Assembly (NCBI GenBank): GCA_965198025.1 | Contig: OZ240237.1 | Location: 1,689,093 to 1,753,092, forward strand | Origin: Terriglobia bacterium | Lineage (GTDB): Bacteria > Acidobacteriota > Terriglobia > 2-12-FULL-54-10 | Direction of reading: 5' to 3' | Length of the DNA stretch: 64,000 nucleotides | Shown here: piece after piece, positions 2,014-63,289 of the stretch | Position numbering within the stretch: position 1 is the first letter of the stretch | Layout: every line of letters starts with the position of its first letter | Position numbers and translations under genes: made by a program | The notes under the pieces: generated by a model | Told to the model about the DNA's origin: nothing | What the model saw: the letters and a program-made list of their open reading frames with translations, nothing else | Database searches by the model: none

Positions 2014-3357
2014 GTGGCGACAATTCTGTTAGCCGATGACAGTGGCACTGCCCAGCGAATGGGTGTACAGATTCTTTCCGCGGAAGGACATGAAGTCAAG
2101 ACGGTCAGCAATGGTCAGGCCGCCATCAAGATGCTGAGCCAGTTCTCCCCGGACCTGATCGTGGCCGACGTCTTCATGCCGGGGAAGACTGGCTACGAAG
2201 TGTGCGAGTTCGTGAAGTCCAACGCAGAATCCTCCTGGATTCCTGTGCTGCTGATCGTGGCTCCAATGGAGCCGTACGACGCGACCGAGGGGCAGCGCGT
2301 AAAGGCGGACGGCCTCGTTACCAAGCCGCTGGACAAGTCGAATCTGATCGAAACGGTCCAATCGTTGTTGGCTTCTACCGAAAAGCCCGCCGCGCAACAG
2401 CCGGAGCCTCCGCCTGAGCCCAACGAGTTGCACGAATTTTCCCGGGAAGAAGACCCTACCATCCTCGCGATCACCTCGCCCTTGACAGCGGAGATTGACA
2501 TTCCGGAAGAGATGATGAATCAGCCCATCAGTCTCGGCAGCGAGCTGCTCGAACCGGAGTCTGTCGAGACAGAACCGTCGGCGGGAGAACAACTGCTCGA
2601 ACCGGAACCTGTCGAAACGGAGCCGTCTGCGGATGAGGGGATGGCCGACGAAGCGCCCCCACCGGCCCTAGTAGAGAACGAATCCCCAGATATAGTGCAG
2701 GACCCCGTTTTCGTCTCGATATCAGAACCGGTTGAACCTGAAGAGATCGGGCGGATCTTTGCCGAAATCAAGGATTCCCCGGAGGAACAACCCTCTTTGG
2801 AGGAACCCGAGCCTCTTATCTCGGCAACTTTGGCCCATGAAACTGAGGAATCCGAAACGCCCGTCCCGGCGGTTTCGGCCCAGGAATCTGACTCCACACC
2901 GGAGGCCTCCTGGACCGGTGAGCTGGCCCAAGTACCGGAAGAAGACAAGAAGTTGTTTGTACCGCACCAGGACTGGCAAGGCCTTGTGAACATGGTCCAG
3001 GAGGCCGGCGAAGACGGGCAGTTTCCCGCCGTTTCTTCAGCCGGCGCCGGAGTGGACTCGGCCACTAAGACACCTGCCGAGGAACATCTATCCGAAGAAG
3101 CTGAACCCGCTGCCGCCCAACCGTCCGAAGAACCCAAATGGATTCCGCAGTTGGCGGCGGAAGAGCATACACCACCTGCCCAGCCAGAACCCTCTTCTTC
3201 CGCTGATACGACGGAGATGACGTTTCCACAGGTCGCACCGCTCAATTACGGCACGGTGGAACAGATTGTCCGGGAAACCATTGAAGGAGTCATGCCGCAG
3301 ATTGTGGAGCGCATCGCCAAGGCGACCGGAATCCAATTCCCGAAGGATAGGGACTAA
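2014..3357 (+). CDS. CheY-like response regulator receiver domain protein with a ~320 aa acidic Glu/Pro-rich disordered C-terminal tail
   Basis: N-terminus ILLADDSG...PDLIVADVFMPGKTGYEVCEFVKS is a REC domain with the phosphoacceptor Asp; the rest is low-complexity E/P/S-rich with no output domain seen. Confidence 0.8.
   Translation: MATILLADDSGTAQRMGVQILSAEGHEVKTVSNGQAAIKMLSQFSPDLIVADVFMPGKTGYEVCEFVKSNAESSWIPVLLIVAPMEPYDATEGQRVKADGLVTKPLDKSNLIETVQSLLASTEKPAAQQPEPPPEPNELHEFSREEDPTILAITSPLTAEIDIPEEMMNQPISLGSELLEPESVETEPSAGEQLLEPEPVETEPSADEGMADEAPPPALVENESPDIVQDPVFVSISEPVEPEEIGRIFAEIKDSPEEQPSLEEPEPLISATLAHETEESETPVPAVSAQESDSTPEASWTGELAQVPEEDKKLFVPHQDWQGLVNMVQEAGEDGQFPAVSSAGAGVDSATKTPAEEHLSEEAEPAAAQPSEEPKWIPQLAAEEHTPPAQPEPSSSADTTEMTFPQVAPLNYGTVEQIVRETIEGVMPQIVERIAKATGIQFPKDRD
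2536..2631 (+). repeat. in-frame tandem duplication of a 48-nt unit (LLEPE[S/P]VETEPSA[G/D]E x2) inside the response-regulator tail
   Basis: gagctgctcgaaccggagtctgtcgagacagaaccgtcggcgggagaa is followed by the near-identical caactgctcgaaccggaacctgtcgaaacggagccgtctgcggatgag. Confidence 0.7.
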
Positions 3358-3777: not shown

Positions 3778-5949
3778 ATGATCACGCTTTCTTCCTCCGT
3801 TCAGTTTGTCAAAGGTGTGGGAGCCTCGCGAGCTGAAACCTTGCGGCAGAAGGCAATTCAGACGGTCGAAGATCTGCTGTTTTACCTCCCCTTCCGCTAT
3901 GAAGACCGCACACGTTTGCGCGGACCGTCCGAAGTGCGTGCTGGCGAAGTTGCCACGGTGATCGCCCGCGTGCGTTCGGCGGGAGCGCTTCCGGTGCGGC
4001 GAAACCGCGTAAAGATCTTTTGTGTCGACGTAGGCGAACGTGGCGCGTATTTTCGCTGCAAGTGGTTCAACTCCGCTTGGCTGGAGCGGATGATCCGGCC
4101 GGGCCAGTATATCGCGCTCCACGGCAAAGTGGAGTTCGACGCCTATGAGGGCGGCCTGCAGATGATGCAGCCGCAATTTGAGATTCTTCCGGAATTCACC
4201 GCCCCACTCGATACCGGCGGCATCAGCGCGGCCGGGCATTCGCTCGAAGTCGGGCGCATCGTTCCGATCTATGAAGCCGTCGGCAAGGGCCGCCTGACAT
4301 CGCGGTTCTTCCGAAATGCCGTCTATTCCGCGCTGGAATCCCTTTCCGGAATCGAGGACCCGCTGCCCCGGACCGTTTCCGAACCGCTCGGATTTCTCTC
4401 GCGCTATGAGGCGTTTCGCAACGCTCATTTTCCTCCCCCCGGCACGCGGCTCGCAGACCTGGATTCGTTCCGCAGTCCGGCTCAGATTCGGCTCATCTTT
4501 GAGGAATTTTTTCTGCTCGAAACAGGCCTCGCGCTCAAGAGAATGCGCGCCCATGAACAGCCCGGTATTGCCTTCCGTACCGACTCGCGCATCCGCGAAT
4601 CGCTCAAACGCATCCTTGCCTTTCGTCCGACCACGGCACAGAAGCGAGTGCTCGGCGAGATCGTAGAGGACATGCGGGCCTCTCGACCCATGCATCGGCT
4701 GCTCCAAGGTGATGTCGGCTGCGGAAAAACTCTGGTTGCGCTCCAGGCTGCCGTTGTTGCGATCGAAAACGGCTATCAGGTGGCCGTCATGGCGCCGACG
4801 GAGATCCTCGCCGCGCAGCACTTCTTCTATTTCCGACGGCTCCTCGCACGGTCCGGCTACACTTCAGCTCTATTGAGCGGAAGTGCAGGATCGCGGGAAA
4901 AGCGTGCGGTCAAGAAGCTGCTCCGGGAAGGAGCGGCCCAGATCGGCATCGGCACCCACGCCCTGATCGAGGGCGACGTCGAGTTCAAAGCGCTCGGTTT
5001 GGTGATCATTGACGAACAGCACCGCTTCGGCGTCATGCAGCGCCTGCGGCTAATGCAGAAGGCGCAAACCCCGGACACGCTCGTCATGACGGCTACTCCT
5101 ATCCCACGCACCCTGGCTCTGACCGTCTACGGCGACTTGGATGTTTCCGTGATCGACGAAATGCCTGCGGGCCGCCGGCCTATTCTGACGCGGCAGATAT
5201 CCAGTGAGGAAGCCGACCAGGCCTATGAATTCGCGCGATCGCAGGTCGCAGCAGGCGCTCAGGTGTTTGTCGTCTGCCCGGTCATCGAGGACACCTCCGT
5301 CCTGGGAGGGACTGCGTCGAGTCGCCAGACCCGCCGCGCGGCCAGTGATCTTAAATCTGCGCTGCGGATGCACGAGCATTTGGCGAAGCACGTGTTCCCG
5401 GGCATTCCGGTCGGCCTGCTGCACGGCAGGATGACGTCGGAGGAGAAGGAACGCACCATGGGCGCCTTTCAGGCTGGCGACCTGCCCATTCTGGTCGGTA
5501 CTACCGTGGTGGAGGTCGGCGTGGACGTGCCCAACGCCACCGTCATGATCATTGAACAAGCTGAGCGGTTCGGACTGGCGCAACTGCATCAACTGCGAGG
5601 CCGCGTCGGCCGAGGGGCCCGCCAGTCTCATTGTCTGCTGCTTGCCTCCCGCGATCTTTCCGATGCCGGCCGGCAGAGACTCGCCGCCCTGGAGCAAACT
5701 CTCAGCGGTTTCGAGATCGCCGAACTCGACATGCGCCTGCGCGGGCCTGGAGAGTTTTTGGGTACGCGTCAGTCGGGGCTTCCAGTGCTCCGCGTCGCCA
5801 ACTTGCTGCGCGATCGGGAAATTCTGGAGCAAGCGCGCCGCCTGGCTCTCGACTTTGTCGACCGCGGTGAGCGCAAGGAGCTGGATCGGCTGGCCAGTTA
5901 CATCAAAGGCAACTGGAACCGCCGCCAGGGTCTCATCCGGGTCGGGTAG
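3778..5949 (+). CDS. recG: ATP-dependent DNA helicase RecG
   Basis: 723 aa; N-terminal wedge/OB region, Walker A GDVGCGKT, DEQHRFG box, helicase C-terminal motifs (QLRGRVGRG) and a RecG-type C-terminus. Confidence 0.9.
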   Translation: MITLSSSVQFVKGVGASRAETLRQKAIQTVEDLLFYLPFRYEDRTRLRGPSEVRAGEVATVIARVRSAGALPVRRNRVKIFCVDVGERGAYFRCKWFNSAWLERMIRPGQYIALHGKVEFDAYEGGLQMMQPQFEILPEFTAPLDTGGISAAGHSLEVGRIVPIYEAVGKGRLTSRFFRNAVYSALESLSGIEDPLPRTVSEPLGFLSRYEAFRNAHFPPPGTRLADLDSFRSPAQIRLIFEEFFLLETGLALKRMRAHEQPGIAFRTDSRIRESLKRILAFRPTTAQKRVLGEIVEDMRASRPMHRLLQGDVGCGKTLVALQAAVVAIENGYQVAVMAPTEILAAQHFFYFRRLLARSGYTSALLSGSAGSREKRAVKKLLREGAAQIGIGTHALIEGDVEFKALGLVIIDEQHRFGVMQRLRLMQKAQTPDTLVMTATPIPRTLALTVYGDLDVSVIDEMPAGRRPILTRQISSEEADQAYEFARSQVAAGAQVFVVCPVIEDTSVLGGTASSRQTRRAASDLKSALRMHEHLAKHVFPGIPVGLLHGRMTSEEKERTMGAFQAGDLPILVGTTVVEVGVDVPNATVMIIEQAERFGLAQLHQLRGRVGRGARQSHCLLLASRDLSDAGRQRLAALEQTLSGFEIAELDMRLRGPGEFLGTRQSGLPVLRVANLLRDREILEQARRLALDFVDRGERKELDRLASYIKGNWNRRQGLIRVG

Positions 5950-5976
5950 AAAAACGCCGTTTCCGGCGTTTTTCGG
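5950..5976. terminator. bidirectional intrinsic terminator hairpin (A-tract, acgccg-tttc-cggcgt stem-loop, T-tract) immediately after the recG stop
   Basis: aaaaacgccgtttccggcgttttt begins right after the recG TAG; a perfect 6-bp GC-rich stem flanked by A and T runs. Confidence 0.6.
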
Positions 5977-6296
5977 TTCCTGCGGTAGATTCGGTTCTTG
6001 CGGTTCCTTCCGTTCCTTCGGAATACCAAATTCACTATAAAAACACTAAAAAAAGGGGCGTTTCGGGCCTTGCGGACGGTGCCTGGGTGGGGCCGGCGGC
6101 AAAGGGAACCAGCCCGGCACGCTGTGGCATAAAAATCACCCCCGGGACTTGGATAGCGGACCCGCGATTCGGGACTCGAAGAACAGACCCACGGCACAAC
6201 AAGCGTGCCGTGGCTACAGGACTCGAAGAATCAGTGCAGGCCGGAGGCCTGGCACTACTTGCGGGCTATACAGCAACGCTGAAAATGGTCTAGAAC
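5950..6296 (+). repeat. composite dispersed intergenic element, copy A: terminator hairpin + ggttcc-rich direct repeats + A/T-rich core + GC-rich tail ending gggctatacagcaacgctgaaaatgg
   Basis: About 190 nt are nearly identical to the reverse complement of 63420-63630 and the end motifs also match; a partial copy of the ggttc(c/t)ttcgg repeats occurs at 30470-30545. Confidence 0.6.
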
Positions 6297-9200
6297 GAGA
6301 GCCGCAGCGCAAACTGAATCTGGCGGGCTGTTCCAACGGTAGTGGAGAGCCGGCCGGCGCTCGAACTTCGACGGCCGGAGTTTCCCGAAAACACCACCAC
6401 GGTGTTTCCCTCATTCCGGTCAAAATTCGGGTGGTTCAGCAGATTAAAGAATTCCGCCCGGAACTGCAGCCGTTTTTGCCCATCAATCGAGAACTCCTTC
6501 TGCGCGGAAATGTCCGCGTTGAAGACGAACGGCGAGATGATGGTATTGCGCCCCACATTCCCCAGCGTTCCCGGTGGCGGAAGCGAGAAGGCGCAGGGAT
6601 CGAAGTATAGTTGCGGAGTTCCCAGCTCCTGGCCCGCCGCCACGCCCAGGCAGCCTTCCGTGACCCCTTCGGTCGGGTTCAGACTTTGCCCGGGGATCAG
6701 ATTGGGGCGAGTAGGCTCGAACAGGTATCCCGGGGTTCGGACGTTCACTTCCACCGTGGACGGCACACCAGTCCGGTAGGAGATGATTCCGCCCAGCCGC
6801 CAGCCCCCAAACACCGCCGAAAGAAACCCCGAGTTGAACCAGCGCTGCCCCGTGCCCAGCGGCGGACTCCAAAAGTAGTTCATGGCGATCCGGTGCCGGA
6901 TGTCGAAATTCGACAGGCCCCGGTCCAGCGTGCGCCTCCACCCAAACTGCGCAAGCCCGCTGCCCGGAGCGTTGGAATCATCATCCACCGACTTGCTGAA
7001 CGTATAGCGGAACTGTGCCGACATTCCCGACATCGGCCGCAGGTTGGCGGAAAGCTGCAGGGAGTTATAGAAGGATTGCGCGTCTGAGGCCAGCATCGAA
7101 ATCGCTCCGAACGCCGGATTCACAGGTCCCGCGCCCGGCCGGCAATTCGGCGAGGGCTGCTCACTCTTGCCACAGTCATCCGGGAAGAACAACGACCCGT
7201 CCGGCAGCGTGATCGGATAGGGAAACTGGTTCGTCTCATACCGGCGCAGCAGATGGTTCCCGCGCGCTCCTACGTACGACGCCTGCAAGCTCAAACCGCC
7301 AGCCAGTTCCTGTTGGACCGAGAAATTGTAGCGCATCACCGTCGGCGTCTTCAGGTCCTCGTAATCCACAATGTGAACGTGAGGTGGAAGCCCTCCGATA
7401 GTTGCCGTGGTGCCGACGATCGCATTGGGAAAAGTTTCTCGGGCGTCGAAATTCGGGTTCACCGCTACTTTGTTGAACGGGGCTGTGTTCTTCCTCCCGA
7501 CACCGATGTATCCCAACATCTGATCGTAATAGATCCCAAAGCCGCCCGCCAGCACCGTACTCTGTCCTGCGAACGGCGTCCAACGCCAGCCGATACGCGG
7601 CGCAAAATTGAAGCGCGACGGGTTGTCCCGCACAATCCGGTCTACCAGCACTTCCGTATCGCGCAACGTATCCGAAAGAGACGTCTGCTTCCCATGGATC
7701 TCATCGAGAACGCTTACGTACTCATAGCGCAGTCCCAGATTCAGATGGAACCGCTGGCTGACACGATACTGGTCTTCCAGATAGAGCGCGAACAGAGTCT
7801 GGCGGAAGTTCCGGTTATTGTCCCCGCCGGGCAAGGCCACCTCGACGCTCGTCCCCTGCGGTCCCCCCAGCAGAAAGTTCTCAAAACTGTTGAACCGCCA
7901 CTGCCCGGCTGACATGAAGAAATTTCCGACATCCCAACGGTAGCGATGCGCCTGCAACCCCATCCGCCAAAGGTGCGCTCCGCTCTGGATCACCGCGTCG
8001 GAGGCCGCCTGAAACGTGTTGGTCACCTTTCGATCCGGCAGTGCCGGGAATGTGCCCATGGGAGTTAAGGAGGGAATCTGAATCTGCCCAAACGCGACGG
8101 CGTTGGGAGTGAAGTACAACTCGGGCGGGATGTCCAGCAGCGTGAACTCCTCGTCCCTGGTGACGGGTCGGGTGTACCCCAGACGGACGACGATCAGCCG
8201 CCGCAGGTCGAAGATATGAGACCCGACAAGCGTTGCATAATGCTGGCGGCTTTCCGTCCTGCGCTGCCACAGATAATTATTGTCCGGCCGGTGCCCGGTT
8301 GCGTCGTCGAACGTATAGCGCGCAAAGAAGCTGTCCTGATCCGACAGCTTGTGATCCACGCGCGCCGTGAAGAAACTCTCGTCCGTGGGCAGAAAATCCG
8401 ATGCACGGTTCTCAGCGATCCCGCCTCCTCGGCAGGCCGAATTCGGCAGCGGATACAGCGCCAGATACGGCTGGATTTTAGGGTGCACCTCCAGCGACTG
8501 GATCACCTCGCCGTTGCAATCGGTCAGGATTCCCTGCCGGGAAAGGGCGTCCGGGAAGAAATTGACCTTCGTTTCGGTCAGCCGGTCTCGCAGCGCTTCA
8601 AAGCTCGCCATGAAAAACGTTTGATCTTTCCAGATCGGACCCGTGACCGTCGCCCCGAACTGGTTTCGCTTGAACGGAGTCGGCTCCGGCCCGGGATCGA
8701 AAAAGTTCCGTGCGTCCAGCTTGCTGTTGCGGAAGTACTCGAACAACGTTCCATGGAACTGTGGCGTTCCGGAGCGCGTGATCGAATCCAGCACCCCGCC
8801 GCTGCCGCGCCCATGTTCTGGTCCGAAGGACGTCAGCACTTGTACTTCCAGCACGGCGTCGGACCCTAATTGCACGCCTGCAGCGCTTCGGGGAACTTGA
8901 TTCCGCGCGTCCATGATGTTGGTTCCGTCGAGCAGAAAGTTATTGGAAGTAGAGCGTCCGCCCACCACCGTCAGGCTGCCGCTCCCTCCTCCCCGCGATG
9001 CCGAACCACCCGAGGGGTCTGACACGCCGGCCTGCAGCGTCGCGAGCTGGTTGTAGCTGCGCCCATTGAGCGGAAGTCCCGAAAGCTGAATTTCACTGAT
9101 CTGCTCAGCAGGGGAGGAAGTAGACGGAGGTTGGTCCGCAGTCCGTTCGATACTTGGCTCTTCGCCGGCGGCGCGGGGGCCTTCCGTCACGGTGGGAGCC

Positions 9201-9307
9201 GCCGGATCCTGTGCGTTCGATGAGCTGGATGAGTTCTGGCTCCACGTTCGGCCTGGACCGCACAGCACGAGGGCCAGCAAAACAGGCAAAGAAACTTTCC
9301 GAATCAC
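6290..9307 (-). CDS. TonB-dependent receptor-like outer membrane protein (plug + large beta-barrel, Acidobacteria type)
   Basis: Signal peptide; plug motif LSGLPLNGRSYNQLATLQAGV; 1005 aa; C-terminal barrel closure ...QIQFALRLSF; paralogous to the next gene. Confidence 0.85.
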   Translation of the reverse strand: MIRKVSLPVLLALVLCGPGRTWSQNSSSSSNAQDPAAPTVTEGPRAAGEEPSIERTADQPPSTSSPAEQISEIQLSGLPLNGRSYNQLATLQAGVSDPSGGSASRGGGSGSLTVVGGRSTSNNFLLDGTNIMDARNQVPRSAAGVQLGSDAVLEVQVLTSFGPEHGRGSGGVLDSITRSGTPQFHGTLFEYFRNSKLDARNFFDPGPEPTPFKRNQFGATVTGPIWKDQTFFMASFEALRDRLTETKVNFFPDALSRQGILTDCNGEVIQSLEVHPKIQPYLALYPLPNSACRGGGIAENRASDFLPTDESFFTARVDHKLSDQDSFFARYTFDDATGHRPDNNYLWQRRTESRQHYATLVGSHIFDLRRLIVVRLGYTRPVTRDEEFTLLDIPPELYFTPNAVAFGQIQIPSLTPMGTFPALPDRKVTNTFQAASDAVIQSGAHLWRMGLQAHRYRWDVGNFFMSAGQWRFNSFENFLLGGPQGTSVEVALPGGDNNRNFRQTLFALYLEDQYRVSQRFHLNLGLRYEYVSVLDEIHGKQTSLSDTLRDTEVLVDRIVRDNPSRFNFAPRIGWRWTPFAGQSTVLAGGFGIYYDQMLGYIGVGRKNTAPFNKVAVNPNFDARETFPNAIVGTTATIGGLPPHVHIVDYEDLKTPTVMRYNFSVQQELAGGLSLQASYVGARGNHLLRRYETNQFPYPITLPDGSLFFPDDCGKSEQPSPNCRPGAGPVNPAFGAISMLASDAQSFYNSLQLSANLRPMSGMSAQFRYTFSKSVDDDSNAPGSGLAQFGWRRTLDRGLSNFDIRHRIAMNYFWSPPLGTGQRWFNSGFLSAVFGGWRLGGIISYRTGVPSTVEVNVRTPGYLFEPTRPNLIPGQSLNPTEGVTEGCLGVAAGQELGTPQLYFDPCAFSLPPPGTLGNVGRNTIISPFVFNADISAQKEFSIDGQKRLQFRAEFFNLLNHPNFDRNEGNTVVVFSGNSGRRSSSAGRLSTTVGTARQIQFALRLSF

Positions 9308-9328: not shown

Positions 9329-12300
9329 TCAGAAGGACAATCGCAACGCAAACTGGATTTGCCGCGACGTAGTAACCGTTTCGTTGATTCTACCCGCCGT
9401 CGGGTTCGGTCGGCCCGGATACGCTCCACTGAATACACCGCGCAAGGCCCGGCCGAAATTCGCCCGGTTGGGAACATTGAAGATCTCAGCACGGAACTGC
9501 AGCCGCCGCTTCGAATCCACCGTAAACTCGCGCTGTACCGACACGTCCACATTGAATACCCAGGGAGCCGTGAGCGTGTTGCGTCCCGCGTTCCCGATCG
9601 TGCCCGGCAGCGGCACGGAGAACGAACAGGGATCGAAATACATCTCCGGTCCGCCCAAGGGGATTCCCGCCGCAATGGTCGGCTGGCCCGTCCGCGGGTC
9701 GGCGCAGCCGGAAGAAACACCCTCGACCGGATTGTTCCTTCGTTCCGGCAACAGATTCGGTTGTGTCGCCGCAAACAGGTACCCCGGCGTTCGCACGCTC
9801 ACTCCAGCCGTAAACGGCGTCCCGGAACGCAGTGACAGGATGCCTCCAATCCGCCAGCCGCCGAACACCTTGGATGCGATCCCAGAATTCCACAAGGGCT
9901 GTCCTCCACCGAACGGCAGTGGATAGAGGTAGTTGAACGACAAACGGTGCCGCACGTCGAAATTCGACAACCCGCGCGCGAGAGTTCGGTCGAACCCGAA
10001 CTGCGTGCTCGCTTGGGAAGGATGGCTGGCATCATCCACCGACTTGCTGAAGCTGTAGCTGGCCCGCACGGACATCCCGCTCCCGGTTTGCCGCCCGCCA
10101 GAGATCTGCAAAGCGTTGAAGAACGATTGCGCGTCCATGCCACCGAACCCAAATTCGGAAAAGTGGGGATTCACCTGCGTCGTATCGGGCGGAAAGAACA
10201 GGCTGCCGTCTTCCTGGAGGATCGGAAACGGAAACTGCACGCCCTCGTAGGCCCGGATCAGGTGGTTTCCTCTTGCCCCCACGTAGGTCGCCTGCAAGCG
10301 CCAATCTTCCGGGAACGACTGTTGCACCGACGCCGTATATCGATACGTCACCGGCACGCGCGGGTTGAAATAATCCAGCGCCTTGCCATCATACGGTTGC
10401 CCGGCGACCGCCGCTGCCGAGTTCGGGAAAAACGAACTCGCATCGAAATTCGTCTTCACACCCCGGCTGTAGTACGGCGCGCTTGCGTCTCGTCCAAACA
10501 ATGCGTATCGCATGAGCGGGTCGTGATACACGCCGAATCCCAGACCGATCAAAGTGCCCGCCCGATTGCCAGGACTCCAGGTGAGACCGATCCGCGGCGC
10601 GAAGTCCTTCCCCGACGGATTCCGCGACAGTAAGCGCCCCCTAAAAGCCTCCGTGTCGTGCCACACGTCGGTTATATACGCGGTGTTGTTTTTCTGGTCG
10701 TGAATCAGCGTGGTGTATTCGTACCGAAGACCCAGGGAAAGGTGCAGGTTCGACCGCAACGCGATCGTATCCTGGAAATACAGACCCAGCAGCGTCTGCC
10801 GGTAAGCATGCGCCTTGTCCGATCCTTGCAGCGCGGCCCGGACATGGGTTCCTGTGATTCCGCCTTGCAAGAAGCTTTCCAAGCTGTTGAAGGTCCACTC
10901 CCCGGCCAGTGAGTTCTGACTGTCGGAATCCCAGCGATAGCGGTGCGCCTGGAATCCCCACTTCAACGTATGTTTGCCGTGCTGCACAAACGTATCGTTC
11001 GCGAACTGGAAGGTGTTGAGAATGCCTGTGTCCGGATGCTGCGATTCCGGACCGATGGTGCTCATACCCGAAACGCTGATCCGCCCAAACTTGAACGTCC
11101 CGGGTATCAGATACAGTTCCGGCGGAACGTCCGTACCCACCGAATCCCGGAATTGGGCGGAACGGGTGTAGCCAAACCGCAGGGCCGTCAATGCCCGCAA
11201 GTTAAAGATATGCGTCCCCACCACGGTGGCGTATTGCTGCCGACTAGTCGCGTCCGTCTGATAGAGCGTTGAGTCGCCCTTGCTCAAGCTTGTGGCATCG
11301 TCAAACGTATAGCGCGCAAACATGCTGTCCCGGTCCGATATCTCATGGTCCAGCCGCGTGGTAAAGAAGATTTCGTTGGTTGGCAGGAAGATGGTCGAGC
11401 GGTGCTCTGCGATCCCTCGCCCGAGCAGCGTGGAATTGGGCACCGGATAGAGATTCAGGTAATCCGGAATCCTCGGGTGGAGCGGGACCGTCGCGTTCCC
11501 GTTTGCGTCAGGAAATCCCAGCCGCGATTGCCCATCCGGGAAATAGTCCAGTTGGGTTTCCGACAGACGGTCCCGCAGGGCTTCCAGACTCCCCAGAAAG
11601 TACGTCGTGTCCTTGCGCACCGGCCCCGTCAGAGTGAATCCGAATTGGTTCCGCTTGAAGGGAGGGGGTTCGGCTTCCGGGTCGAAGAAATTCCGCGCGT
11701 CCAGCTTGCTGTTGCGCAAGTATTCGAACGCCGTGCCGTGGAACTCCGGCGTGCCGGAATGGGTGATCGAGTTCACCACGCCGCCGGCCCCCCGGCCATG
11801 ATCGGGTCCGAAGTAGGAGCTGAACACCTGCACTTCGTACACGGCATCCGAACCAAGCTGCACCCCGGCGGCGCTGCGGGGCACCTGGTTGCTGCTGTCC
11901 ATGATGTTCGTGCCGTCCAACAGAAAATTGTTCGAGGTCGGGCGGCCCCCTGCCACGGTCAGGCTGCCTCCACCGACGCCGCGCGAAGCCGAGGCGCTCG
12001 CGGTCTCCGTTACCCCCGCTTGCAGCGTCGCGAGCTGGTTATAGCTTCGGCCGTTCAAGGGCAGGCCCGACAACTGCGTGGAGTCAATCTGCTGGACCGA
12101 TGCTGCGGCCGCGCGGTCACCCCGTCCGACCGGGTCCTGCGAAGCAATCCGGCTTGCGAGTACCAGTTCGATCGTGGCTTCCTCCCCGGCCCCAAGCGCC
12201 CGTCGGAGTACGGAACTGCTTGCTCCCAAGACAGCCGCGATTTCATAGTTTCCCGGCGCAACCGCCGCGAATTCAAATCGCCCGTCTGCTTCCGTCGAGG

Positions 12301-12499
12301 CGCTGTGTTGCGCCCCTGTGGCAATGTTCCGCGCTGTTACCGTAGCGCCCGCAACCGGTGAACCCAGAGCGTCCATCACCCTTCCCTGCAATCTCCCGGC
12401 CCCGTCTTGTCCCTGGAGCGGCGCTGGTTGCCCCAGGGCCAAAACCATCCCGGCAAGCAGACAAGCAACTCGGAATAGAACCCAAAAATCTTTCTTCAT
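9329..12499 (-). CDS. TonB-dependent receptor-like outer membrane protein with N-terminal carboxypeptidase-regulatory-like domain
   Basis: Signal peptide; CarboxypepD_reg-like segment GRVMDALGSPVAGATVTARN...ADGRFEFAAVAPGNYEI; same plug motif and the same C-terminus QIQFALRLSF; only 21 nt from the downstream paralog. Confidence 0.85.
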   Translation of the reverse strand: MKKDFWVLFRVACLLAGMVLALGQPAPLQGQDGAGRLQGRVMDALGSPVAGATVTARNIATGAQHSASTEADGRFEFAAVAPGNYEIAAVLGASSSVLRRALGAGEEATIELVLASRIASQDPVGRGDRAAAASVQQIDSTQLSGLPLNGRSYNQLATLQAGVTETASASASRGVGGGSLTVAGGRPTSNNFLLDGTNIMDSSNQVPRSAAGVQLGSDAVYEVQVFSSYFGPDHGRGAGGVVNSITHSGTPEFHGTAFEYLRNSKLDARNFFDPEAEPPPFKRNQFGFTLTGPVRKDTTYFLGSLEALRDRLSETQLDYFPDGQSRLGFPDANGNATVPLHPRIPDYLNLYPVPNSTLLGRGIAEHRSTIFLPTNEIFFTTRLDHEISDRDSMFARYTFDDATSLSKGDSTLYQTDATSRQQYATVVGTHIFNLRALTALRFGYTRSAQFRDSVGTDVPPELYLIPGTFKFGRISVSGMSTIGPESQHPDTGILNTFQFANDTFVQHGKHTLKWGFQAHRYRWDSDSQNSLAGEWTFNSLESFLQGGITGTHVRAALQGSDKAHAYRQTLLGLYFQDTIALRSNLHLSLGLRYEYTTLIHDQKNNTAYITDVWHDTEAFRGRLLSRNPSGKDFAPRIGLTWSPGNRAGTLIGLGFGVYHDPLMRYALFGRDASAPYYSRGVKTNFDASSFFPNSAAAVAGQPYDGKALDYFNPRVPVTYRYTASVQQSFPEDWRLQATYVGARGNHLIRAYEGVQFPFPILQEDGSLFFPPDTTQVNPHFSEFGFGGMDAQSFFNALQISGGRQTGSGMSVRASYSFSKSVDDASHPSQASTQFGFDRTLARGLSNFDVRHRLSFNYLYPLPFGGGQPLWNSGIASKVFGGWRIGGILSLRSGTPFTAGVSVRTPGYLFAATQPNLLPERRNNPVEGVSSGCADPRTGQPTIAAGIPLGGPEMYFDPCSFSVPLPGTIGNAGRNTLTAPWVFNVDVSVQREFTVDSKRRLQFRAEIFNVPNRANFGRALRGVFSGAYPGRPNPTAGRINETVTTSRQIQFALRLSF

Positions 12500-18634: not shown

Positions 18635-20692
18635 CTAGCCTATGGCAATCAGCGGAGCGATGATCAGAGAGACCACCGCCATTAACTTGATCAGGATGTT
18701 CATGGAAGGGCCGGACGTGTCTTTGAACGGATCGCCTACCGTGTCGCCGACGACGGCGGCTTTGTGAGCGTCGGTTCCCTTCTTCTCCCCTGCGACTCCT
18801 CCCTGCTCGATCAGCTTCTTGGCGTTGTCCCAAGCACCACCCGCATTGGCCATCATCAGGGCCAGCAGCACTCCCGTTACCGTGGCTCCGGCTAGCATTC
18901 CACCCAGCGCCTCCGGCCCCAAGGCATATCCGACAATCAATGGCGATGCTACAGCAGTTATTCCGGGAGCTATCATTTCTCCTAACGCAGCCCTCGTGGC
19001 AATGTCTACGCAGCGCGCTGCATCCGGCTTGGCGGCTGGGTCCCCTTGCAGCAGGCCGGGAATTTCACGGAACTGGCGGCGAATTTCATCCACCATCCTT
19101 CCCGCTGCATTGCCGACGCTGGTCATGGTCAGGGCTGCAATAAAGAACGGCAACGTTCCGCCAATGAACAGACCAATCACCAGATTCGGATCGGTGATCT
19201 CCAGAACAATCGGAGAAAGGTCATTCCGGTCCCGCACAAAATTCACTGCCTGGGTGTAAGCAGAAAACAGCGCGAGCGATGTCAGCGCAGCCGACCCAAT
19301 GGCGAACCCTTTGCCGATTGCAGCGGTGGTGTTCCCCAGTGAATCCAGCTTGTCGGTAATCTTGCGAACATCCGGACCCAGGCGGCTCATCTCGGAGATG
19401 CCTCCCGCATTGTCAGCAATGGGACCATATGCGTCCACGCTCATCGTAATTCCGACCGTCGCTAGCATGCTCACTGCAGCGATTCCGATTCCGTACAGGC
19501 CGCCGACCTGGTTTGCCACGTAAATCGCGGCGCAAATCGTCAGGGCCGGCAGCGCACAGCTCTCCATGCCCACCGCGATTCCCCGAATGATGTTCGTTGC
19601 AGAACCCGTCTTCGAGGCTTCCGCAATCGAATGAATCGGACGGTTGGACGTATAAAATTCCGTCAGCAGCCCGATGGCAATGCCTCCGATGACACCGGCT
19701 ACCACCGCCCAAAACACATTGGCATTGACCGCAGATTGCGATATCAAATAGTAGGCTGCAGCCAGGAACAGAGCGGCCGCCAGAATGGTCGCGTTGCGTA
19801 ATGCCCCGGCAGGACCAAATGCCTTGAGTACCCGCATGGCAGCGATTCCTACCAAAGAAGCGAACAGACCCAGGACAGCGAGCGTCAGCGGGAGTGCCAT
19901 TAACACGGCCACCGGGACAGCCGCTGTAGCTGCGTCGCTCAAGGTCTGCAATCCCGCAGGGGTCAGCGTGGCGGCGATCGCGATGGTCGCTACGATGGAT
20001 CCGACGTAAGACTCAAAAATATCTGCTCCCATTCCGGCTACGTCCCCGACGTTATCACCCACGTTATCGGCAATTACTCCGGGATTGCGAGGATCGTCTT
20101 CTGGGATGCCTGCTTCCACTTTCCCTACGAGATCGCTACCGACGTCCGCCGCCTTTGTAAAAATTCCTCCGCCAACTCTGGCAAAAAAAGCAATGGAACT
20201 GGCGCCCATGGCGAAGCCGTTCAAGTGCATCGCCGTTTCCGGATTGCCGAAAAAACCGTAAACAATGCCGAGCCCCAATAGCCCCAGGCTGGCCACGGCC
20301 AATCCCATGACCGTGCCTCCGTCAAAAGAGACCAGCAATGCAGAGCCCTCACCACCCGACCGGGCTGCTTCTGCCGTGCGGACGTTCGCCTTGGTGGCTG
20401 CCTTCATACCCAAGAAGCCCGCCAGGGCCGAGCAGATGGCTCCGCTGATAAAACAAACCGCAGTCAACACGTGTAGCCGCCAAGCGAGCAGAACCGCCAC
20501 CACCAGAACAAACCCGGCCAGTATGCTGTATTCACGTTTCAAAAAGGCCATGGCACCGGAGTGAATGCGTTCTGCGATTTCCCGCATCAGCTCGTTGCCG
20601 TCACCTCGCCGAACGATTGCCATGTAGATGGCAAGGGCAACGGCCAGTCCAAAAACTCCCGCGTAGGGAGCTATGGAAGTTAGATCGTCCAT
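18635..20692 (-). CDS. hppA: membrane-bound proton-translocating pyrophosphatase (H+-PPase)
   Basis: 685 aa polytopic membrane protein with [10 protein letters not shown] (H+-PPase signature) and [15 protein letters not shown] motifs. Confidence 0.95.
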
Positions 20693-30091: not shown

Positions 30092-30445
30092 TTATGCCAG
30101 TGGGGAGAGGTAGCGAACTTCAAATGTGACGCAGCCTTCCGGCGACTTCCAGGGACCGTGCTTCATGCCAGGCGGGCGGCAGGCGTACATCCCGGCAGTG
30201 AAGTTCCGCCCCAAGGTTATATCGTAGATTGCTCCCTCCAGGATGTACACCTCTTCCCAGAATTCATGCGTCAGGACGCCGTTGGGTGAGGTGTCCGTCC
30301 CGGGACTAAAGCGCAGAATTCGAGTGGCTATGCCGGACTCGGGATCGCCTGCCAGAATGCGCTCGTGCAATCCGGGCACTCCTCCCGGGACCGGAGTCCA
30401 GGCGACGTCGGCCACGGGGAAGAACTCGAATTCAGGCTTACTCAC
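30092..30445 (-). CDS. cupin domain protein
   Basis: 117 aa with a cupin-like double-stranded beta-helix motif region HEFWEEVYILEGAIYD...GMYACRPPGMKHGPW. Confidence 0.65.
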   Translation of the reverse strand: MSKPEFEFFPVADVAWTPVPGGVPGLHERILAGDPESGIATRILRFSPGTDTSPNGVLTHEFWEEVYILEGAIYDITLGRNFTAGMYACRPPGMKHGPWKSPEGCVTFEVRYLSPLA

Positions 30446-30544
30446 ATGACACCTCCTCGGAAAATTCGGACCCTTGGGGACTCTCGGTAATTTCGGTATT
30501 TGCGGTTCTTTCGGTTCCTTCGTTTGCGCAAAATCACCGCAAAA

Positions 30545-32008
30545 TCACCCAGTTTTGGTGGAAAAAGGGGCCCCGTAGCGGCTCATAAACTCCTCCGCGC
30601 TGCGCAGGGCTTCCTCATAGCCATAATTCCGAAACGCGTAGCCCTTAGCGACAAACGGAGCACCCGCGTAGAACATCTCATACTGGAGATGGCGGCCCGC
30701 GAACTCGGAGCCGACAATGTCCCATGCCAATTTGAAGAGCTTGACCCTTTCTTCCGAAGACGTATTGGGAGAGCGCAGATAGCGGTCCATGTCCGATTTG
30801 GTCAGGTCGCTGGTGAGATCGCGCCAGGACGCAGGAAGCTGGATGACACCTCCGCCGGCCAGTTCACGCAGCAGGAGGGTGGCTCGCGGATAGAGCTCGG
30901 CCTGGAGTCCCATCGCCCCATAGAGGAAGCGTGGGTTGGGTTTTGCTACGCCGTGGGCATCGAGTGAAAACGTGGACTCCGAAGCCAGGACCATTCCTTC
31001 GACCATACCGGCGAGCGAAGCGAGGTCGCCGAGCTTTTCCTGTACAGCGGGAATTTTTTCGATGCCGGTCACTTGCGTGATACGCCGGGCAACACCCAGC
31101 AGGAACTTCATTTTGACGGTCAGGCGAATCTGCGCCTGGGCGTTTCCGAGAACATGCGCTGCGGTCTCGAAGAATTGCCGGCGGACTTGCTGTACGTCGC
31201 GAAAAACAAATACGTTTTCCCAGGGGATCCACACATGATCGAAGACGATCAGGGCGTCGGTTTCATCAAAACGAGTCGAGAGCGGATAGTCGAAGCTGCT
31301 CGGCTGGTCGGAGGCGTAGGGCCGGCGGCAATAGACCTTGAGACCCGGCGTGCTCAACGGAACGACAAAGGAGACGGCGTATTGCTCGTCCTGGGGCGTG
31401 AGCGGCTTGATGCAACTGACGAAAAGCCAATCGGAAACAGCCGTGGCCGTGCCGAGCATCTGCGAACCGCACACGACCATGCCGCTTTCCTGTTCCTCCA
31501 GGACGCCGACCTGGAGCAGTTCTTCTCCCCAGCCGTGCGCCGTGACGCTGCGGTCGATCTGCGGTGGGATAATGACGTAGGTGACGAACAGGTCTTCTTC
31601 CACCACCTTGCGATAGAAGCGCGACACGTTTTGAGCGAATGGCCGGCCGGCTTGGTCGAAGATTTCCGGGGCACTGGCGAAACCTGCCAGAAAGCTTCCG
31701 ACGTGGTCCGGGCTGCGGCCTACGAAACCTTTTGAGACTTCCGCCCAGGTAGTAATGGCTCGGCGGCGTTCCTGCAGGTCGTCGAGCGACCGAGGGATCA
31801 TGAAGACCTTGTTCGCCGGCTTGCCGGTTTCCGGAGAGGTGCAGATCATTCCCTTCTCCGGATTGGCAGCCACGTCGTACAAGGTTGCGACTGTATCCGC
31901 AATGCCCTGGAAGGCCGGATGGCGGGAAACATCCAGCACGCGGGCGCCGTCGAGAATAACGGTCCTGTCATCTGCCAGCGATTGCAAGTACTCGGAACCG
32001 GTCCTCAT
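30545..32008 (-). CDS. 4-hydroxyphenylacetate 3-monooxygenase oxygenase-component (HpaB) / 4-hydroxybutyryl-CoA dehydratase family protein
   Basis: 488 aa from ATG 32008 (MRTGSEYLQSL...); the HpaB-family N-terminus and acyl-CoA-dehydrogenase-like fold blocks; the ATG overlaps the TGA of the upstream gene (ATGA). Confidence 0.8.
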   Translation of the reverse strand: MRTGSEYLQSLADDRTVILDGARVLDVSRHPAFQGIADTVATLYDVAANPEKGMICTSPETGKPANKVFMIPRSLDDLQERRRAITTWAEVSKGFVGRSPDHVGSFLAGFASAPEIFDQAGRPFAQNVSRFYRKVVEEDLFVTYVIIPPQIDRSVTAHGWGEELLQVGVLEEQESGMVVCGSQMLGTATAVSDWLFVSCIKPLTPQDEQYAVSFVVPLSTPGLKVYCRRPYASDQPSSFDYPLSTRFDETDALIVFDHVWIPWENVFVFRDVQQVRRQFFETAAHVLGNAQAQIRLTVKMKFLLGVARRITQVTGIEKIPAVQEKLGDLASLAGMVEGMVLASESTFSLDAHGVAKPNPRFLYGAMGLQAELYPRATLLLRELAGGGVIQLPASWRDLTSDLTKSDMDRYLRSPNTSSEERVKLFKLAWDIVGSEFAGRHLQYEMFYAGAPFVAKGYAFRNYGYEEALRSAEEFMSRYGAPFSTKTG

Positions 32009-32712
32009 AGACGCACCTCCACGCCAGAAAGCTGCTGCGGTTCGGCTGGACGGCGCATGCGGCACTCATACGAGAGCTTGCCGAAGCCGGGGACTTCCAG
32101 CTCACAGGCAAAGTAATCCGTGAAAGCAAATTTCCCGGACTGCAACGGAAGGGTTCCCATCAACAGGACTGTTCCCGCAAGGCCGGACGACAAATGCAAG
32201 CTTGTCAGGAGGTTCTGTGGGGCTAGCAACTGGCCGAGCTTACCGCATTGATAGAGCTCGCGGTCCGGTCCGGGCGCGGCCCAACTGCGCATCGTAATCT
32301 CGTCCCATACAGCGGCTATGTCATTGTACCGCCATACGTTCTTGCTCAGCGGCTTGGGCAGCTCCTTGGAACGAGCAATCGAGCGGCGCTCCTGTTCGCG
32401 ATCCGTAAAGTCCACGATCACTGACACCAGCGCGTCGTCCAGGCTGTCGCCGCGGAACAGAAGTGCCGGCTCGACTTCGCCCGAGATGGGGGCAACCGGA
32501 AACTGCAGATCCGTCTCTGTGGTGACCCACTCGGAAGCGAGGGGAAACAATGCCGGGACGCAGTCGGGAGGAGCAATGCCCTGCCGCTCCAGTTCCGCGA
32601 TGTGGGCGCGCATCTGCTCCCTATCGCGTCCGGTGTATCCGGCCACCAGAATCCGCCGGACGGAGAACTCGACCGGTGAATCATCCAGTTCGAGGATCAG
32701 CTGTTTTGCCAC
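32005..32712 (-). CDS. hypothetical protein, translationally coupled to the HpaB-like gene
   Basis: 235 aa with no recognisable catalytic motif; its stop overlaps the downstream start; possibly a conserved DUF that pairs with HpaB-like enzymes. Confidence 0.5.
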   Translation of the reverse strand: MAKQLILELDDSPVEFSVRRILVAGYTGRDREQMRAHIAELERQGIAPPDCVPALFPLASEWVTTETDLQFPVAPISGEVEPALLFRGDSLDDALVSVIVDFTDREQERRSIARSKELPKPLSKNVWRYNDIAAVWDEITMRSWAAPGPDRELYQCGKLGQLLAPQNLLTSLHLSSGLAGTVLLMGTLPLQSGKFAFTDYFACELEVPGFGKLSYECRMRRPAEPQQLSGVEVRL

Positions 32713-32789
32713 TGGGAAAGGCTACACCGAATCGGTAAAACTCCGCAACGCAGACGCAACGGCATTCTACTACGGCGGCTCAGGGGAGG

Positions 32790-33015
32790 CAGGAATGCCT
32801 GCCCCTACTTTAGGACAGGCGAAGAGCAGATCCCTCGTCACTGCGTTCCTCGGGATGACACGGCAAAGGAGAGTGGATAGGGAGATGGAACACAGGCCCT
32901 GGCGGGCTGTGCTCGAAGGGGACAGGCCAGAGGCCTGTCGCTACTTAGGACAGGCAAGAATGTTGGTCGCTGCCTGGTCGACAGGCCGGAGGCCTGTCGC
33001 TACTTGGCAGGCAGG
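32790..33015 (+). repeat. cluster of REP/MITE-like palindromic repeats (ggcaggaatgcctgcc hairpins; gacaggcc-nga-ggcctgtc-gctactt hairpins; a ~60-nt unit shared with 35737-35795)
   Basis: ggcaggaatgcctgcccctactt occurs at both ends of the region; gacaggccagaggcctgtcgctactt and gacaggccggaggcctgtcgctactt occur inside; gatgacacggcaaaggagagtggat.gggagatgga.cacaggccctggcgggctgtgctc is duplicated at 35737. Confidence 0.6.
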
Positions 33016-33034
33016 AATGCCTGCCCCCACTTGA

Positions 33035-35360: not shown

Positions 35361-35611
35361 TGCCCTGGAACCAGCCGGGACACCTCCCACACCTGCCTTA
35401 GCTGTCAAACGATTTTCCCATGAGGGCCTCTAGCGCCCTTCCAATCCCCTCGACGATACTCTTGTCCTCATCCTTCCAAGGATACCCGCCACGGGAAGAA
35501 ATCGATAGAGTGCTTAGCGGGATTCGCAGATGCCGGAACCTGCAGAACCCATCATGGAATCGCTCGACGATTTGGGCCTGCGGCCCTAAAGCCAAATCAG
35601 GACACTACCGG

Positions 35612-35830
35612 TTGGTGTCTTAATTTCAAAAGAGAAGAGCAGATCCCTCGTCGCCCCTCACCAACGGCTCGGCGAAACGACATCAATATGTCCGAAACGA
35701 CATCAATATGTCGTTTCGTGTCCTCGGGATGACACGGCAAAGGAGAGTGGATCGGGAGATGGAGCACAGGCCCTGGCGGGCTGTGCTCTATGGAGACAGG
35801 TCGGAGGCCTGTCGCTACTTTGCGGCTGCG
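35612..35830 (+). repeat. MITE/structured-element copy related to 32805-32950, plus a local direct repeat and perfect palindrome (gaaacgacatcaatatgtc x2)
   Basis: Shares gagcagatccctcgtc, gatgacacggcaaaggagagtggatcgggagatggagcacaggccctggcgggctgtgctc and gacaggtcggaggcctgtcgctactt with the 32.8 kb cluster. Confidence 0.55.
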
Positions 35831-35972
35831 CTACACCAAACCCTGAAAATGGTCTAGAATTCAGGCTGAGGAATTATCGAAGGCAACTGACAATACGAGA
35901 TACGCTATCGAAGGGACTTGCCATGTCGGGCCTCTGTAGCTACTATAGGGCTACATATTGGGAGGCGTCCAG

Positions 35973-36230
35973 ATGAGTTCCGATACGGTCGTTCGCGCTC
36001 GGATCGATAGCGACACTAAAGCACGGGCTACGGAAGCGCTTCAAGCCATGGGCCTGTCGGTATCCGATGCCATCCGTCTGCTGTTGCTGCGAGTGGCGAA
36101 TGAGAAACGGCTGCCATTCGCCGTCCGGGTGCCGAATGTCGCTACGGTCAAGGCAATGGAGGAACTGGGCGAGGGCAAGGGCAAACGCTTCGGCAACTCC
36201 GAGGAACTGTTCCGGGATCTCGGCGTCTGA
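35973..36230 (+). CDS. dinJ: type II antitoxin, DinJ/RelB family
   Basis: MSSDTVVRARIDSDTKARATEALQAMGLSVSDAIRLLLLRVANEKRLPF matches the RHH DinJ antitoxin fold; 2 nt upstream of the yafQ-like gene. Confidence 0.8.
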   Translation: MSSDTVVRARIDSDTKARATEALQAMGLSVSDAIRLLLLRVANEKRLPFAVRVPNVATVKAMEELGEGKGKRFGNSEELFRDLGV

Positions 36231-36232
36231 CA

Positions 36233-36499
36233 ATGCTGACCCCGGTTCGATCCACGCAGTTCAAACGCGACGTAAGAAGAGCCCAGAAGCGCGGCAAAGA
36301 TCTGATCAAGCTGCGGGTGTTGCTGGCGTCGTTGATCCAGCAGGAGCCGTTATCCGCCCGCTATCTCGATCATCCACTCAGGGGATTTGGGAAGGGCTAT
36401 CGGGAGGCCCATCTCGAGCCGAACTGGCTTTTGATTTACCGCACCGAAGGAGATGAATTGCATCTGGTCCGTACCGGCTGCCCATTCCGATCTCTTTAA
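36233..36499 (+). CDS. yafQ: type II toxin YafQ (RelE/ParE superfamily mRNA interferase)
   Basis: FKRDVRRAQKRGKDLIKLRVLLASLIQQEPLSARYLDHPLRGFGKGYREAHLEPNWLLIYR...LVRTGCPFRS is closely similar to YafQ proteins. Confidence 0.85.
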   Translation: MLTPVRSTQFKRDVRRAQKRGKDLIKLRVLLASLIQQEPLSARYLDHPLRGFGKGYREAHLEPNWLLIYRTEGDELHLVRTGCPFRSL

Positions 36500-63288: not shown

Positions 63289-63289
63289 A

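Follow-up and report, generated by a model that had tools for sequence, protein, structure and literature searches.

A mosaic intergenic repeat with a terminator-shaped hairpin at two convergent gene junctions of a Terriglobia genome

The window analyzed here comprises 64,000 nucleotides (nt) of a Terriglobia bacterium of the phylum Acidobacteriota (assembly GCA_965198025.1, contig OZ240237.1, positions 1,689,093 to 1,753,092), and the subject of this study is an intergenic repeat of ~345-365 bp, which occurs in it twice, in inverted orientation, each time between two convergent genes. From the source genome, a metagenome-assembled genome (MAG; ENA ERZ25072076) with a GC content of 59%, ~83 kb of a 2.93-Mb contig were examined, consisting of the 64-kb window plus L103 and L158. 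RecG homologs assign the window to Acidobacteriota/Terriglobia, the nearest named relative among them being Acidobacteria bacterium RIFCSPLOWO2_02_FULL_61_28 with 74% identity. Comparison loci for the first site were chosen by RecG identity (L106, 92%; L107, 83%; L108, 80%), while the second site was compared with L109, which has a RidA 90% identical to that of the window and the same gene order. As neutral benchmark we used the identity at 4-fold degenerate sites between the window and L106, amounting to 80% for recG and 87% for the TonB-dependent receptor gene.

Two inverted copies at unrelated gene junctions

Copy A (5950-6292, forward strand) fills the spacer between recG (3778-5949, +) and the convergent gene of a 1005-aa TonB-dependent receptor (6290-9307, -), adjoining the recG stop codon TAG (5947-5949) on one side and the receptor stop codon CTA (6290-6292) on the other. 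Copy B (63286-63654, reverse strand) is located between a RidA-family gene (62842-63288, +) and the convergent gene of a 1143-aa TonB-dependent receptor (TonB-1143; stop 63867, -). It adjoins the RidA-family stop codon (63286-63288), and its other end is 213 nt away from the receptor stop. The TonB gene faces one end of the element in copy A and the other end in copy B. The original prediction had placed both copies directly at TonB-receptor ends, which holds for copy A but not for copy B.

Repeat search and pairwise alignment resolved the similarity into long arms (5950-6165 vs 63415-63630) of 216 nt with 94% complementarity and short arms (6244-6292 vs 63286-63334) of 49 nt with 88% complementarity. 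The ~80-100 nt separating these two blocks do not align between the copies, so that the near-identical stretch, variable middle, and matching termini described previously were all recovered. The predicted inverted recurrence of a ~340-bp element is likewise real, but copy B turned out to be longer: the complete element spans about 63289-63654, including an extra inverted terminal module at 63632-63654. The end motif GGGCTATACAGCAACGCTGAAAATGG is present in the window only at 6263-6288 and 63290-63315 (0 expected from shuffles), and for the left module of copy B three matches were counted vs 0.26 expected, one of them exactly on the copy B boundary.

Since the flanking genes of the two copies are unrelated (recG and the 1005-aa receptor vs TonB-1143 and RidA), a segmental duplication including the flanking genes is ruled out, as which the original prediction could have been explained away. 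A close relative lacks copy B at the orthologous site (see below), and this, together with the unrelated flanks, corroborates the view of the original prediction that the DNA is no unique spacer but a dispersed intergenic module, recombinogenic or mobile. The idea of the inverted pair delimiting an invertible or composite 57-kb segment was rejected, both junctions keeping their neighbours in relatives. GC skew over the window was uninformative.

Modules of the element

Apart from the left terminal module, which only copy B possesses, both copies can be divided into the same succession of modules, the variable middle being composed of repetitive extragenic palindromic (REP)-type hairpins. Parts of the element also stand alone:

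5950-5973, +: hairpin of copy A, A5-CGCCG-TTTC-CGGCG-T5 (AAAAACGCCG-TTTC-CGGCGTTTTT), directly 3' of the recG stop
5974-6021, +: 9-bp array of copy A with five units, CGGTTCCTG CGGTAGATT CGGTTCTTG CGGTTCCTT CCGTTCCTT, followed by CGG
6022-6054, +: A-rich spacer of copy A, AATACCAAATTCACTATAAAAACACTAAAAAAA
6055-6165, +: GC-rich, hairpin-prone segment of copy A, ~110 nt, right half of the 216-nt core
6166-6262, - (tag strand): variable middle of copy A, two GTAG-tagged REP-type hairpins (6189-6217 and 6236-6258)
6263-6289, +: right terminal module of copy A, GGGCTATACAGCAACGCTGAAAATGG, its end 1 nt ahead of the TonB-receptor stop CTA (6290-6292)
63632-63654, -: left terminal module of copy B, CCCCATTTTCAGGGTTGGTATAG, inverted relative to the right module and found in neither copy A nor L106
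63607-63631, -: hairpin of copy B, A6-CGCCG-TTTC-CGGCG-T5
63415-63606, -: array (63559-63606), A-rich spacer (63527-63558), and GC-rich segment (63415-63526) of copy B
63316-63414, +: variable middle of copy B, a REP doublet with GTAG hairpin at 63337-63361
63289-63315, -: right terminal module of copy B, GGGCTATACAGCAATGCTGAAAATGA, adjoining the RidA-family stop (63286-63288)
30449-30544, +: solo fragment, diverged 9-bp array plus A-rich stretch (array pattern, nhmmer, and Pfam for the flanking genes)
35795-35858, -: solo REP hairpin plus terminal module CCATTTTCAGGGTTTGGTGTAG of the copy B left-module subtype, TCTAG-flanked, without core

The first solo fragment lies between an HpaB-like gene (30545-32065, -) and a cupin gene (30092-30445, -), both assigned by Pfam. 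An element profile (nhmmer) matched 30485-30570 (E=1e-7) with model positions 54-129, i.e., with the array and the A-rich part alone; this match and the array pattern at 30494-30521 substantiate the shorter fragment noted before near 30470-30545. The same profile matched 35759-35858 (E=1e-5) with REP and terminal module alone. Because modules are thus found on their own at these two places, the element is a mosaic of small modules that also exist separately.

Orthologous sites and timing

Site A is occupied in the window and in L106, in which the element resides in the same recG/TonB spacer without the left module and with a core 86% identical to both A and B. L107 and L108 have other DNA 3' of recG. 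Site B is occupied in the window as well as in a second assembly of the window species (L104, 99.3% identical) and a short-read contig (L105), with copy B being identical in both, and it is not occupied in L109. In this locus, 228 nt past the TonB stop align to the window up to GGGCTA(C/T), followed by 165 nt of unrelated sequence with an inverted GTAG pair, and homology resumes at the last RidA codons, the RidA stop being TAG in the window and TGA in L109. The homology break between window and L109 coincides exactly with the outer end of the copy B left module.

Within the core, A and B differ at 18 sites, A and L106 at 29, and B and L106 at 25; the differences confined to one sequence number 18 in L106, 11 in A, and 7 in B. 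Since A and B differ less from each other than either does from L106, copy B branched off the A lineage later than the species diverged and represents a later DNA-level copy, a timing in agreement with its absence from L109.

The terminator-shaped hairpin

Intrinsic terminators are composed of a GC-rich stem-loop followed by a U-tract, the bidirectional type having an upstream A-tract that provides the U-tract on the other strand. Precisely this layout (A5-6 CGCCG TTTC CGGCG T5-6) is found in the hairpin AAAAACGCCGTTTCCGGCGTTTTT. Either strand gives a stable fold, with -12.9 to -19.2 kcal/mol (z = -3.1 to -4.8). In detail, copy A folds with -19.2 (+) and -18.0 (-) kcal/mol (z -4.3 and -4.6), and copy B with -12.9 and -15.6 kcal/mol on its two strands. 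Read together, the recG stop and the copy A hairpin give GTAG plus a perfect 10-bp stem. Shape and stability hence agree with the ready-made bidirectional terminator that had been proposed, and termination would be expected in both directions. On the recG-sense strand, the single substitution in the L106 hairpin still permits pairing (G.U), and on the other strand it leaves a broken A.C pair, which fits a putative use of the hairpin as recG terminator. The terminator scan classified a different hairpin, 6213-6189 in the middle of copy A, as terminator-like.

A native GC-rich hairpin of 10-11 bp without U-tract (CCCCGCGAAGG...CTTTCGCGGGG, 63805-63847, -) is situated ~20 nt past the TonB-1143 stop and kept in L109:1185-1225; it may be the gene's own 3' structure, separate from the element.

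The variable middle and other GTAG-tagged repeats

One or two GTAG-tagged REP-type hairpins of 23-29 nt make up the variable middle of each copy. REPs are defined as imperfect palindromes of 20-40 nt with the terminal tetranucleotide GTAG (Di Nocera et al. 2013, PMC3733652). The units of the middle and their relatives in the window agree with this definition, e.g., GTAGCGACAGGCCTCCGGCCTGTCG (32979-33003) and GTAGGGACAGGCCTCTGGCCTGTCC (63337-63361), while the 216-nt core does not count as a REP. The same hairpin family recurs at 32783-33032, 35795-35818, and 36590-36614, and the middle of copy B is 98% identical to 32905-32946 and resembles that of the L106 ortholog. The variable middle is a slot occupied by a separate, commoner repeat family, of which at least eight GTAG units are present in the 64 kb, all of them extragenic, as singles, doublets, and clusters with linkers. 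The 2013 survey recorded GTAG repeats in Proteobacteria, Cyanobacteria, Chloroflexi, and PVC, with Acidobacteria having only tyrosine transposases flanked by terminal inverted repeats (TIRs) (PMC3733652). Among the scanned open reading frames (ORFs) of the window no Y1 transposase was found, and the DNA examined held no gene for a REP-associated tyrosine transposase (RAYT).

The individual GTAG hairpins carry their tag on the reverse strand at 32783-32808, 32920-32944, 32979-33003, 33006-33032, 35795-35818, and 36590-36614, and on the forward strand at 63337-63361. The family, to which a GGCAGGCAGGAATGCCTGCC variant also belongs, fills the 322-nt DUF2848-UbiD spacer and is found as well at L058:6080-6200 and 6590-6650. 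Another GTAG-tagged unit, GGTAGTGTCCTA / TAGGACACTACC, is present in L109:905-965, in the window (35603-35613 and 36668-36700), and in L104:18900-18960; its L109 representative, located where the window has copy B, is a perfect inverted pair of 12 bp around a loop of 14 nt. A further dispersed repeat, GAAGAGCAGATCCCTCG ... CCTCGGGATGACA (window 32826-32870 and 35626-35735; L104:18040-18070 and 19010-19100), in places holds the hairpin CGAAACGACATCGATATGTCGTTTCG, tandemly duplicated at 35676-35722. It flanks toxin-antitoxin cassettes, namely RelB/YafQ at 35958-36499 in the window and a ~1-kb HigB/HTH cassette that is present in L104 and not in L103, the assemblies otherwise being 99.3% identical.

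Terminal modules

The terminal module (~23 nt) exists in two subtypes. CAGC(G/A)TTGCTGTATAG forms the right ends of copies A and B, and CAGGGTT(T)GGT(A/G)TAG the left end of copy B, also occurring alone beside a REP at 35838-35858. In copy B, the two subtypes constitute the arms of TIRs (63632-63654 vs 63290-63315, CATTTTCAG..TTG..TATAG), which pair in the fold; the left repeat is missing in copy A and the L106 ortholog. Copy B is flanked by CTA (or TA) on both sides (GGGCTA|CCCC... and ...ATGAT|CTAAGG), at the place of the 165 nt of different DNA in L109. No matching termini were detected in 0.94 Mb of loci. A derivation of the recG 3' end from the left terminal module was rejected, as the ...RVG* end is shared by all RecG homologs including the element-free ones.

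The 9-bp array and conservation of the left part

Within the window, the 9-bp repeat pattern is restricted to copy A, copy B, and 30494-30521 (0.03 expected), the arrays of A and B being identical save one position (CGGCAGATT in B for CGGTAGATT). Another Terriglobia MAG hosts a homologous array beside REP hairpins (L058:6226-6300), including the CGGTAGATT variant unit and followed by TTCGGAAT, and shorter 9-bp arrays are located 3' of recG in L107 and of the glutamate dehydrogenase gene in L108. Scans of sequence collections were performed with exact patterns only, giving minimum counts and letting diverged copies elsewhere escape. Among the GTDB species representatives, at least 97 loci contained the 9-bp pattern, nearly all from unrelated phyla, matching the array part only and often in coding repeats; only the Terriglobia locus L058 looked homologous, over the array alone. 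A CGGTTCCTT-type array was furthermore observed in frame in the signal peptide GLFGLFGLFGSFGSF, with a (G-x-F)n core, of a Tricorn/PD40-like protein (L103:16890-16960 and L109:7251-7326), the two loci differing by one 9-bp unit. Because the array is used in both coding and non-coding contexts with varying unit number, this points to a DNA-level, slippage-prone repeat.

The left ~107 nt, comprising hairpin, array, and spacer, are 96% identical between A and B and 90% to L106, i.e., above the neutral sites, and this could leave room for a function beyond termination. The GC-rich half (alignment columns 108-225) shows 86% identity between A and B and 78-82% to L106, corresponding to the neutral rate.

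Coding capacity, RNA structure, and database searches

Neither a known RNA family nor a protein was recognized in the element. At gathering threshold, Rfam 15 gave no matches over the whole window, and at E<=10 only chance-level matches of 11-18 bits were obtained vs cut-offs of 45-93; the Rfam check suggested by the original prediction hence returned no credible match. Covariation analysis of three sequences, which is of low power, found one compensatory pair on the forward and none on the reverse strand, vs ~10 broken pairs for each strand. In the three-sequence consensus folds, the covariation term was positive, meaning a penalty, and whole-element folds reached z-scores of -1.9 to -2.7 only. 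No tRNA or tmRNA was found in the element, and a promoter scan gave no sigma-70-like promoter on either strand, the sole -10-like hexamer (TATA(A/G)T-like, in the A-rich spacer) being deleted in the L106 ortholog. Visual inspection of a GG-N9-GC core motif resembling sigma-54 sites led to its rejection, the spacing being one base short and the motif destroyed in L106.

The open frames of A and B lack a start codon and are broken in L106 by indels of 2, 3, and 1 nt. A small protein G-S-C-G-R-F-G-S-C-G-S-F was rejected on the same grounds, with no start codon and its frame lost in L106. Searching the concatenated six-frame translation of the core against 5.8 billion proteins gave no homologs, at a sensitivity limited for indel-bearing copies. 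A core 22-mer had no match among the GTDB species representatives, and a core 20-mer had four in the metagenome collection, all chance matches in AT-rich contigs. The viral collection yielded no match to the right terminal module, one to the left terminal module inside a phage structural gene (chance), and 44 to a 16-mer, equal to the chance expectation; plasmid and phage blastn gave no matches. The element is non-coding, belongs to no known RNA family, and is no demonstrably structured RNA.

Neighbouring TonB-receptor genes

TonB-receptor 3' ends in or at the edge of the window lie at 6290, 9329, 39152, and 63867, those at 9329 and 39152 being without the element. Approximately three of the six convergent junctions in the window involve a TonB gene, and two such hits are expected by chance with p ~0.2. 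Based on this value, the opposite orientation of the copies, and the element-free TonB-1143 ortholog in L109, we consider the TonB association coincidental. Common to all three occupied sites (A, B, and L106) is a convergent-gene junction, a sample too small to establish a bias.

The tandem paralogous TonB-receptor genes 6290-9307 and 9329-12499 share stretches of 298 nt and 262 nt with 72% identity.

Other repeats in the window

A two-gene block, consisting of an NHL/lactonase-like gene and an ORF of 268-288 aa, is duplicated 20.85 kb apart (37283-38619 and 58134-59462), the two blocks matching over 40-89 nt at a time with 65-79% identity. The response-regulator gene 2014-3357 contains a direct repeat with a 48-nt period (2545-2632; 40 nt, 85%), which presumably encodes a repetitive linker. 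Direct and inverted copies of a third dispersed repeat (~35-75 nt, 71-85% identical) were found at 45674-45832, 54748-54860, and 56124-56286; they occupy spacers upstream of the genes at 45833 (-), 54998 (+), and 56176 (+), for which they could provide a promoter or operator region in common.

Discussion

We favour, with confidence reaching about midway, the explanation of the element as a lineage-restricted, non-coding mosaic intergenic repeat of the kind of REPs, bacterial interspersed mosaic elements (BIMEs), and transposable elements of the miniature inverted-repeat type (MITEs), with the following history and mode of spread. Copy A would already have been present at the recG/TonB junction when the lineage of the nearest relative sampled branched off, and copy B would have been made later at the RidA/TonB junction by DNA-level copying from the same sequence lineage. 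The borders of copy B coincide with the short REP-type and terminal modules, and through such modules the element, carrying no enzyme of its own, may have spread in trans with the help of a transposase, REP-associated HUH/Y1-type or other, or through ectopic recombination of resident modules. The hairpin, the sole activity apparent from the sequence, would terminate both convergent transcripts, acting directly after recG in copy A and ending them in copy B ~260 nt past the TonB stop and ~320 nt past the RidA stop, with the remainder of the element being passenger DNA.

Several observations weigh against this explanation. Full copies number two in ~83 kb of the window genome, and the ~9-kb extensions on each side of the window contained no others. 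The copies show no unambiguous target-site duplication, a clean empty site is missing with L109 carrying its 165 nt of unrelated sequence at site B, and no transposase with matching ends was found among the scanned window ORFs or the loci surveyed. Without a left module in copy A and its ortholog, copy B is not derivable from A via a mechanism using both termini, and one is left to postulate either a third complete copy plus gene conversion or recombination through resident modules. That the left ~107 nt are conserved better than neutral sites also counts here, as does the terminator scan, which made no call on the A-tract/GC-stem/T-tract hairpin, presumably due to the A/T runs lengthening the stem and leaving no free T run behind.

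A classical MITE is a doubtful alternative, albeit the likeliest of those considered. The element would then transpose as one unit of ~365 bp, bounded by imperfect ~23-bp TIRs and lacking autonomy, by means of a DDE transposase encoded elsewhere, and insert at TA/CTA(G) targets, which at 59% GC are often stop codons, and copy A would be a 5'-truncated member. In line with this, the inverted termini of copy B pair in the fold, the L109 homology breaks off exactly at the left terminus, and TCTA(G/A) comes after each of the three right-hand termini, i.e., those of A, of B, and of the solo module at 35838, with the left flank of copy B ending in CTA. The flank TCTAGAAC belongs natively to the TonB gene, forming its end also in the element-free L108, and hence is target sequence outside the element. 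Size and lack of an ORF match the definitions in Delihas 2011 (PMC3184786), and sites A and B are both occupied in some genomes and not in others. However, inverted termini exist in one copy only, as two module subtypes that also occur singly, and the left end is missing in copy A and its ortholog. The closer similarity of A to B than to its own ortholog would require gene conversion for an old independent master copy. Neither a clean target-site duplication or empty site nor a partner insertion sequence (IS) was found in the loci surveyed, and no other copy appeared in the exact-pattern genome, metagenome, and viral scans, the plasmid and phage blastn, or the six-frame protein search. The L106 short-read scaffold passes straight through the core, suggesting that the core is not multi-copy there. 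The MITE-like character initially proposed is thus supported in part, by size, absence of an ORF, and presence/absence pattern, with TIRs in a single copy, a target-site duplication that is not clean, and no partner transposase known.

Rather improbable in our view is that the left unit, i.e., the tagged hairpin, the (CGGTTCCTT)n array with CGGTAGATT, and the A-rich stretch, is a portable functional cassette; part of it recurs in another Terriglobia genome and at 30449-30544. It could be a single-strand HUH/Y1 mobile element resembling IS200/IS605 and palindrome-associated transposable elements (PATEs) that delivers a two-way terminator, and would then insert 3' of (G/A)TAG, possess subterminal hairpins, and leave no duplication. 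Alternatively, an ~85-nt array-plus-terminator RNA could titrate a GGA-binding protein. If true, either option would be a new element class for Acidobacteriota.

Decidedly improbable is a functional RNA, either a small RNA (sRNA) of ~85 nt from the left part, transcribed from the strand opposite recG, or an element in the 3' untranslated region (3'-UTR) of the flanking genes; in the sRNA version, a protein, e.g., CsrA, could attach to the repeated A(A/C)GGAAC motifs. Conservation of the left ~107 nt above both neutral sites and the GC-rich half speaks for it, as do the homologous array with its CGGTAGATT unit in another Terriglobia MAG and the predicted strong terminator in which the array would end on the strand opposite recG. 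But promoter-like sites are missing on both strands, with the sole -10-like hexamer deleted in L106, and the L106 substitution breaks the hairpin pair (A.C) on the sRNA strand and not on the recG-sense strand. Rfam matches and compensatory changes are likewise missing, and the in-frame use of the array in a signal peptide with varying unit number indicates a DNA-level repeat. The conserved 3'-UTR or sRNA of the original prediction is not supported by these results, nor by the neutral rate of the GC-rich half. Finally, a module dedicated to the genes of TonB-dependent receptors, be it regulatory or a 3'-end one, for which the receptor neighbours of both full copies and the L106 copy would speak, is extremely improbable given two copies facing these genes with opposite ends, the 213-nt gap of the RidA-adjoining copy B, the element-free L109 ortholog and the element-free window 3' ends at 9329 and 39152, and a chance p of ~0.2, so that the receptor association suggested at the outset is not upheld.

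If the mosaic-repeat explanation is correct, the element is an example, from the little-studied Acidobacteriota, of short mobile or recombinogenic modules building mosaic spacers between convergent genes, and such spacers can donate a ready-made two-way terminator. It would also indicate GTAG-tagged REP-type hairpins to be common in at least this Terriglobia lineage, the phylum not being listed for them in PMC3733652. In terms of annotation, such spacers should not be taken for sRNAs or TonB-specific regulatory elements, and they explain breaks of short-read contigs, the Logan contig L105 stopping within the REP part. No long-standing question is opened by the element.

Comparison with known repeat systems

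REPs, BIMEs, and REPINs are GTAG-tagged palindromes mobilised by RAYT Y1 transposases (Nunvar 2010, PMC2817692; PMC3733652). Typical families are extragenic, number >100 units per genome, and accompany a cognate RAYT gene with REPs at its flanks. The middle of our element resembles them in its GTAG-tagged 23-29-nt hairpins, arranged as singles, doublets, and clusters, and the L109 site has an inverted GTAG pair; in contrast, the 216-nt core is far longer than a BIME linker and not palindromic. Correia elements of Neisseria can supply transcription signals to neighbouring genes. With these and other MITEs the element shares the small size, the lack of a transposase, TIRs (in copy B), TA-containing flanks, and the intergenic location (PMC3184786). 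Yet Correia elements measure 104-157 bp, exist in hundreds of copies, and have near-perfect TIRs of 26 bp and a TA duplication, whereas the TIRs found here are imperfect and limited to one copy, with an ambiguous duplication and an apparently low number of copies. BOX elements of S. pneumoniae (boxA-boxB(n)-boxC) are similarly modular, with variable internal units between conserved ends (PMC3184786), but their modules are unrelated to those of our element, and BOX is abundant with a proposed partner IS.

Pneumococcal SPRITEs, as they are described in PMC3184786, are terminator-like high-copy repeats of ~105 bp from Firmicutes with a bias to convergent 3' ends. Measured against this description, our element is alike in its position at convergent junctions (A, B, and L106) and in a hairpin that is terminator-shaped on both strands, and different in being a ~350-bp mosaic of Acidobacteriota with two copies known, no sequence relationship being expected. 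By analogy, SPRITE may be regarded as the closest functional counterpart of the element, and REP/BIME mosaics, BOX, and Correia as its closest structural ones.

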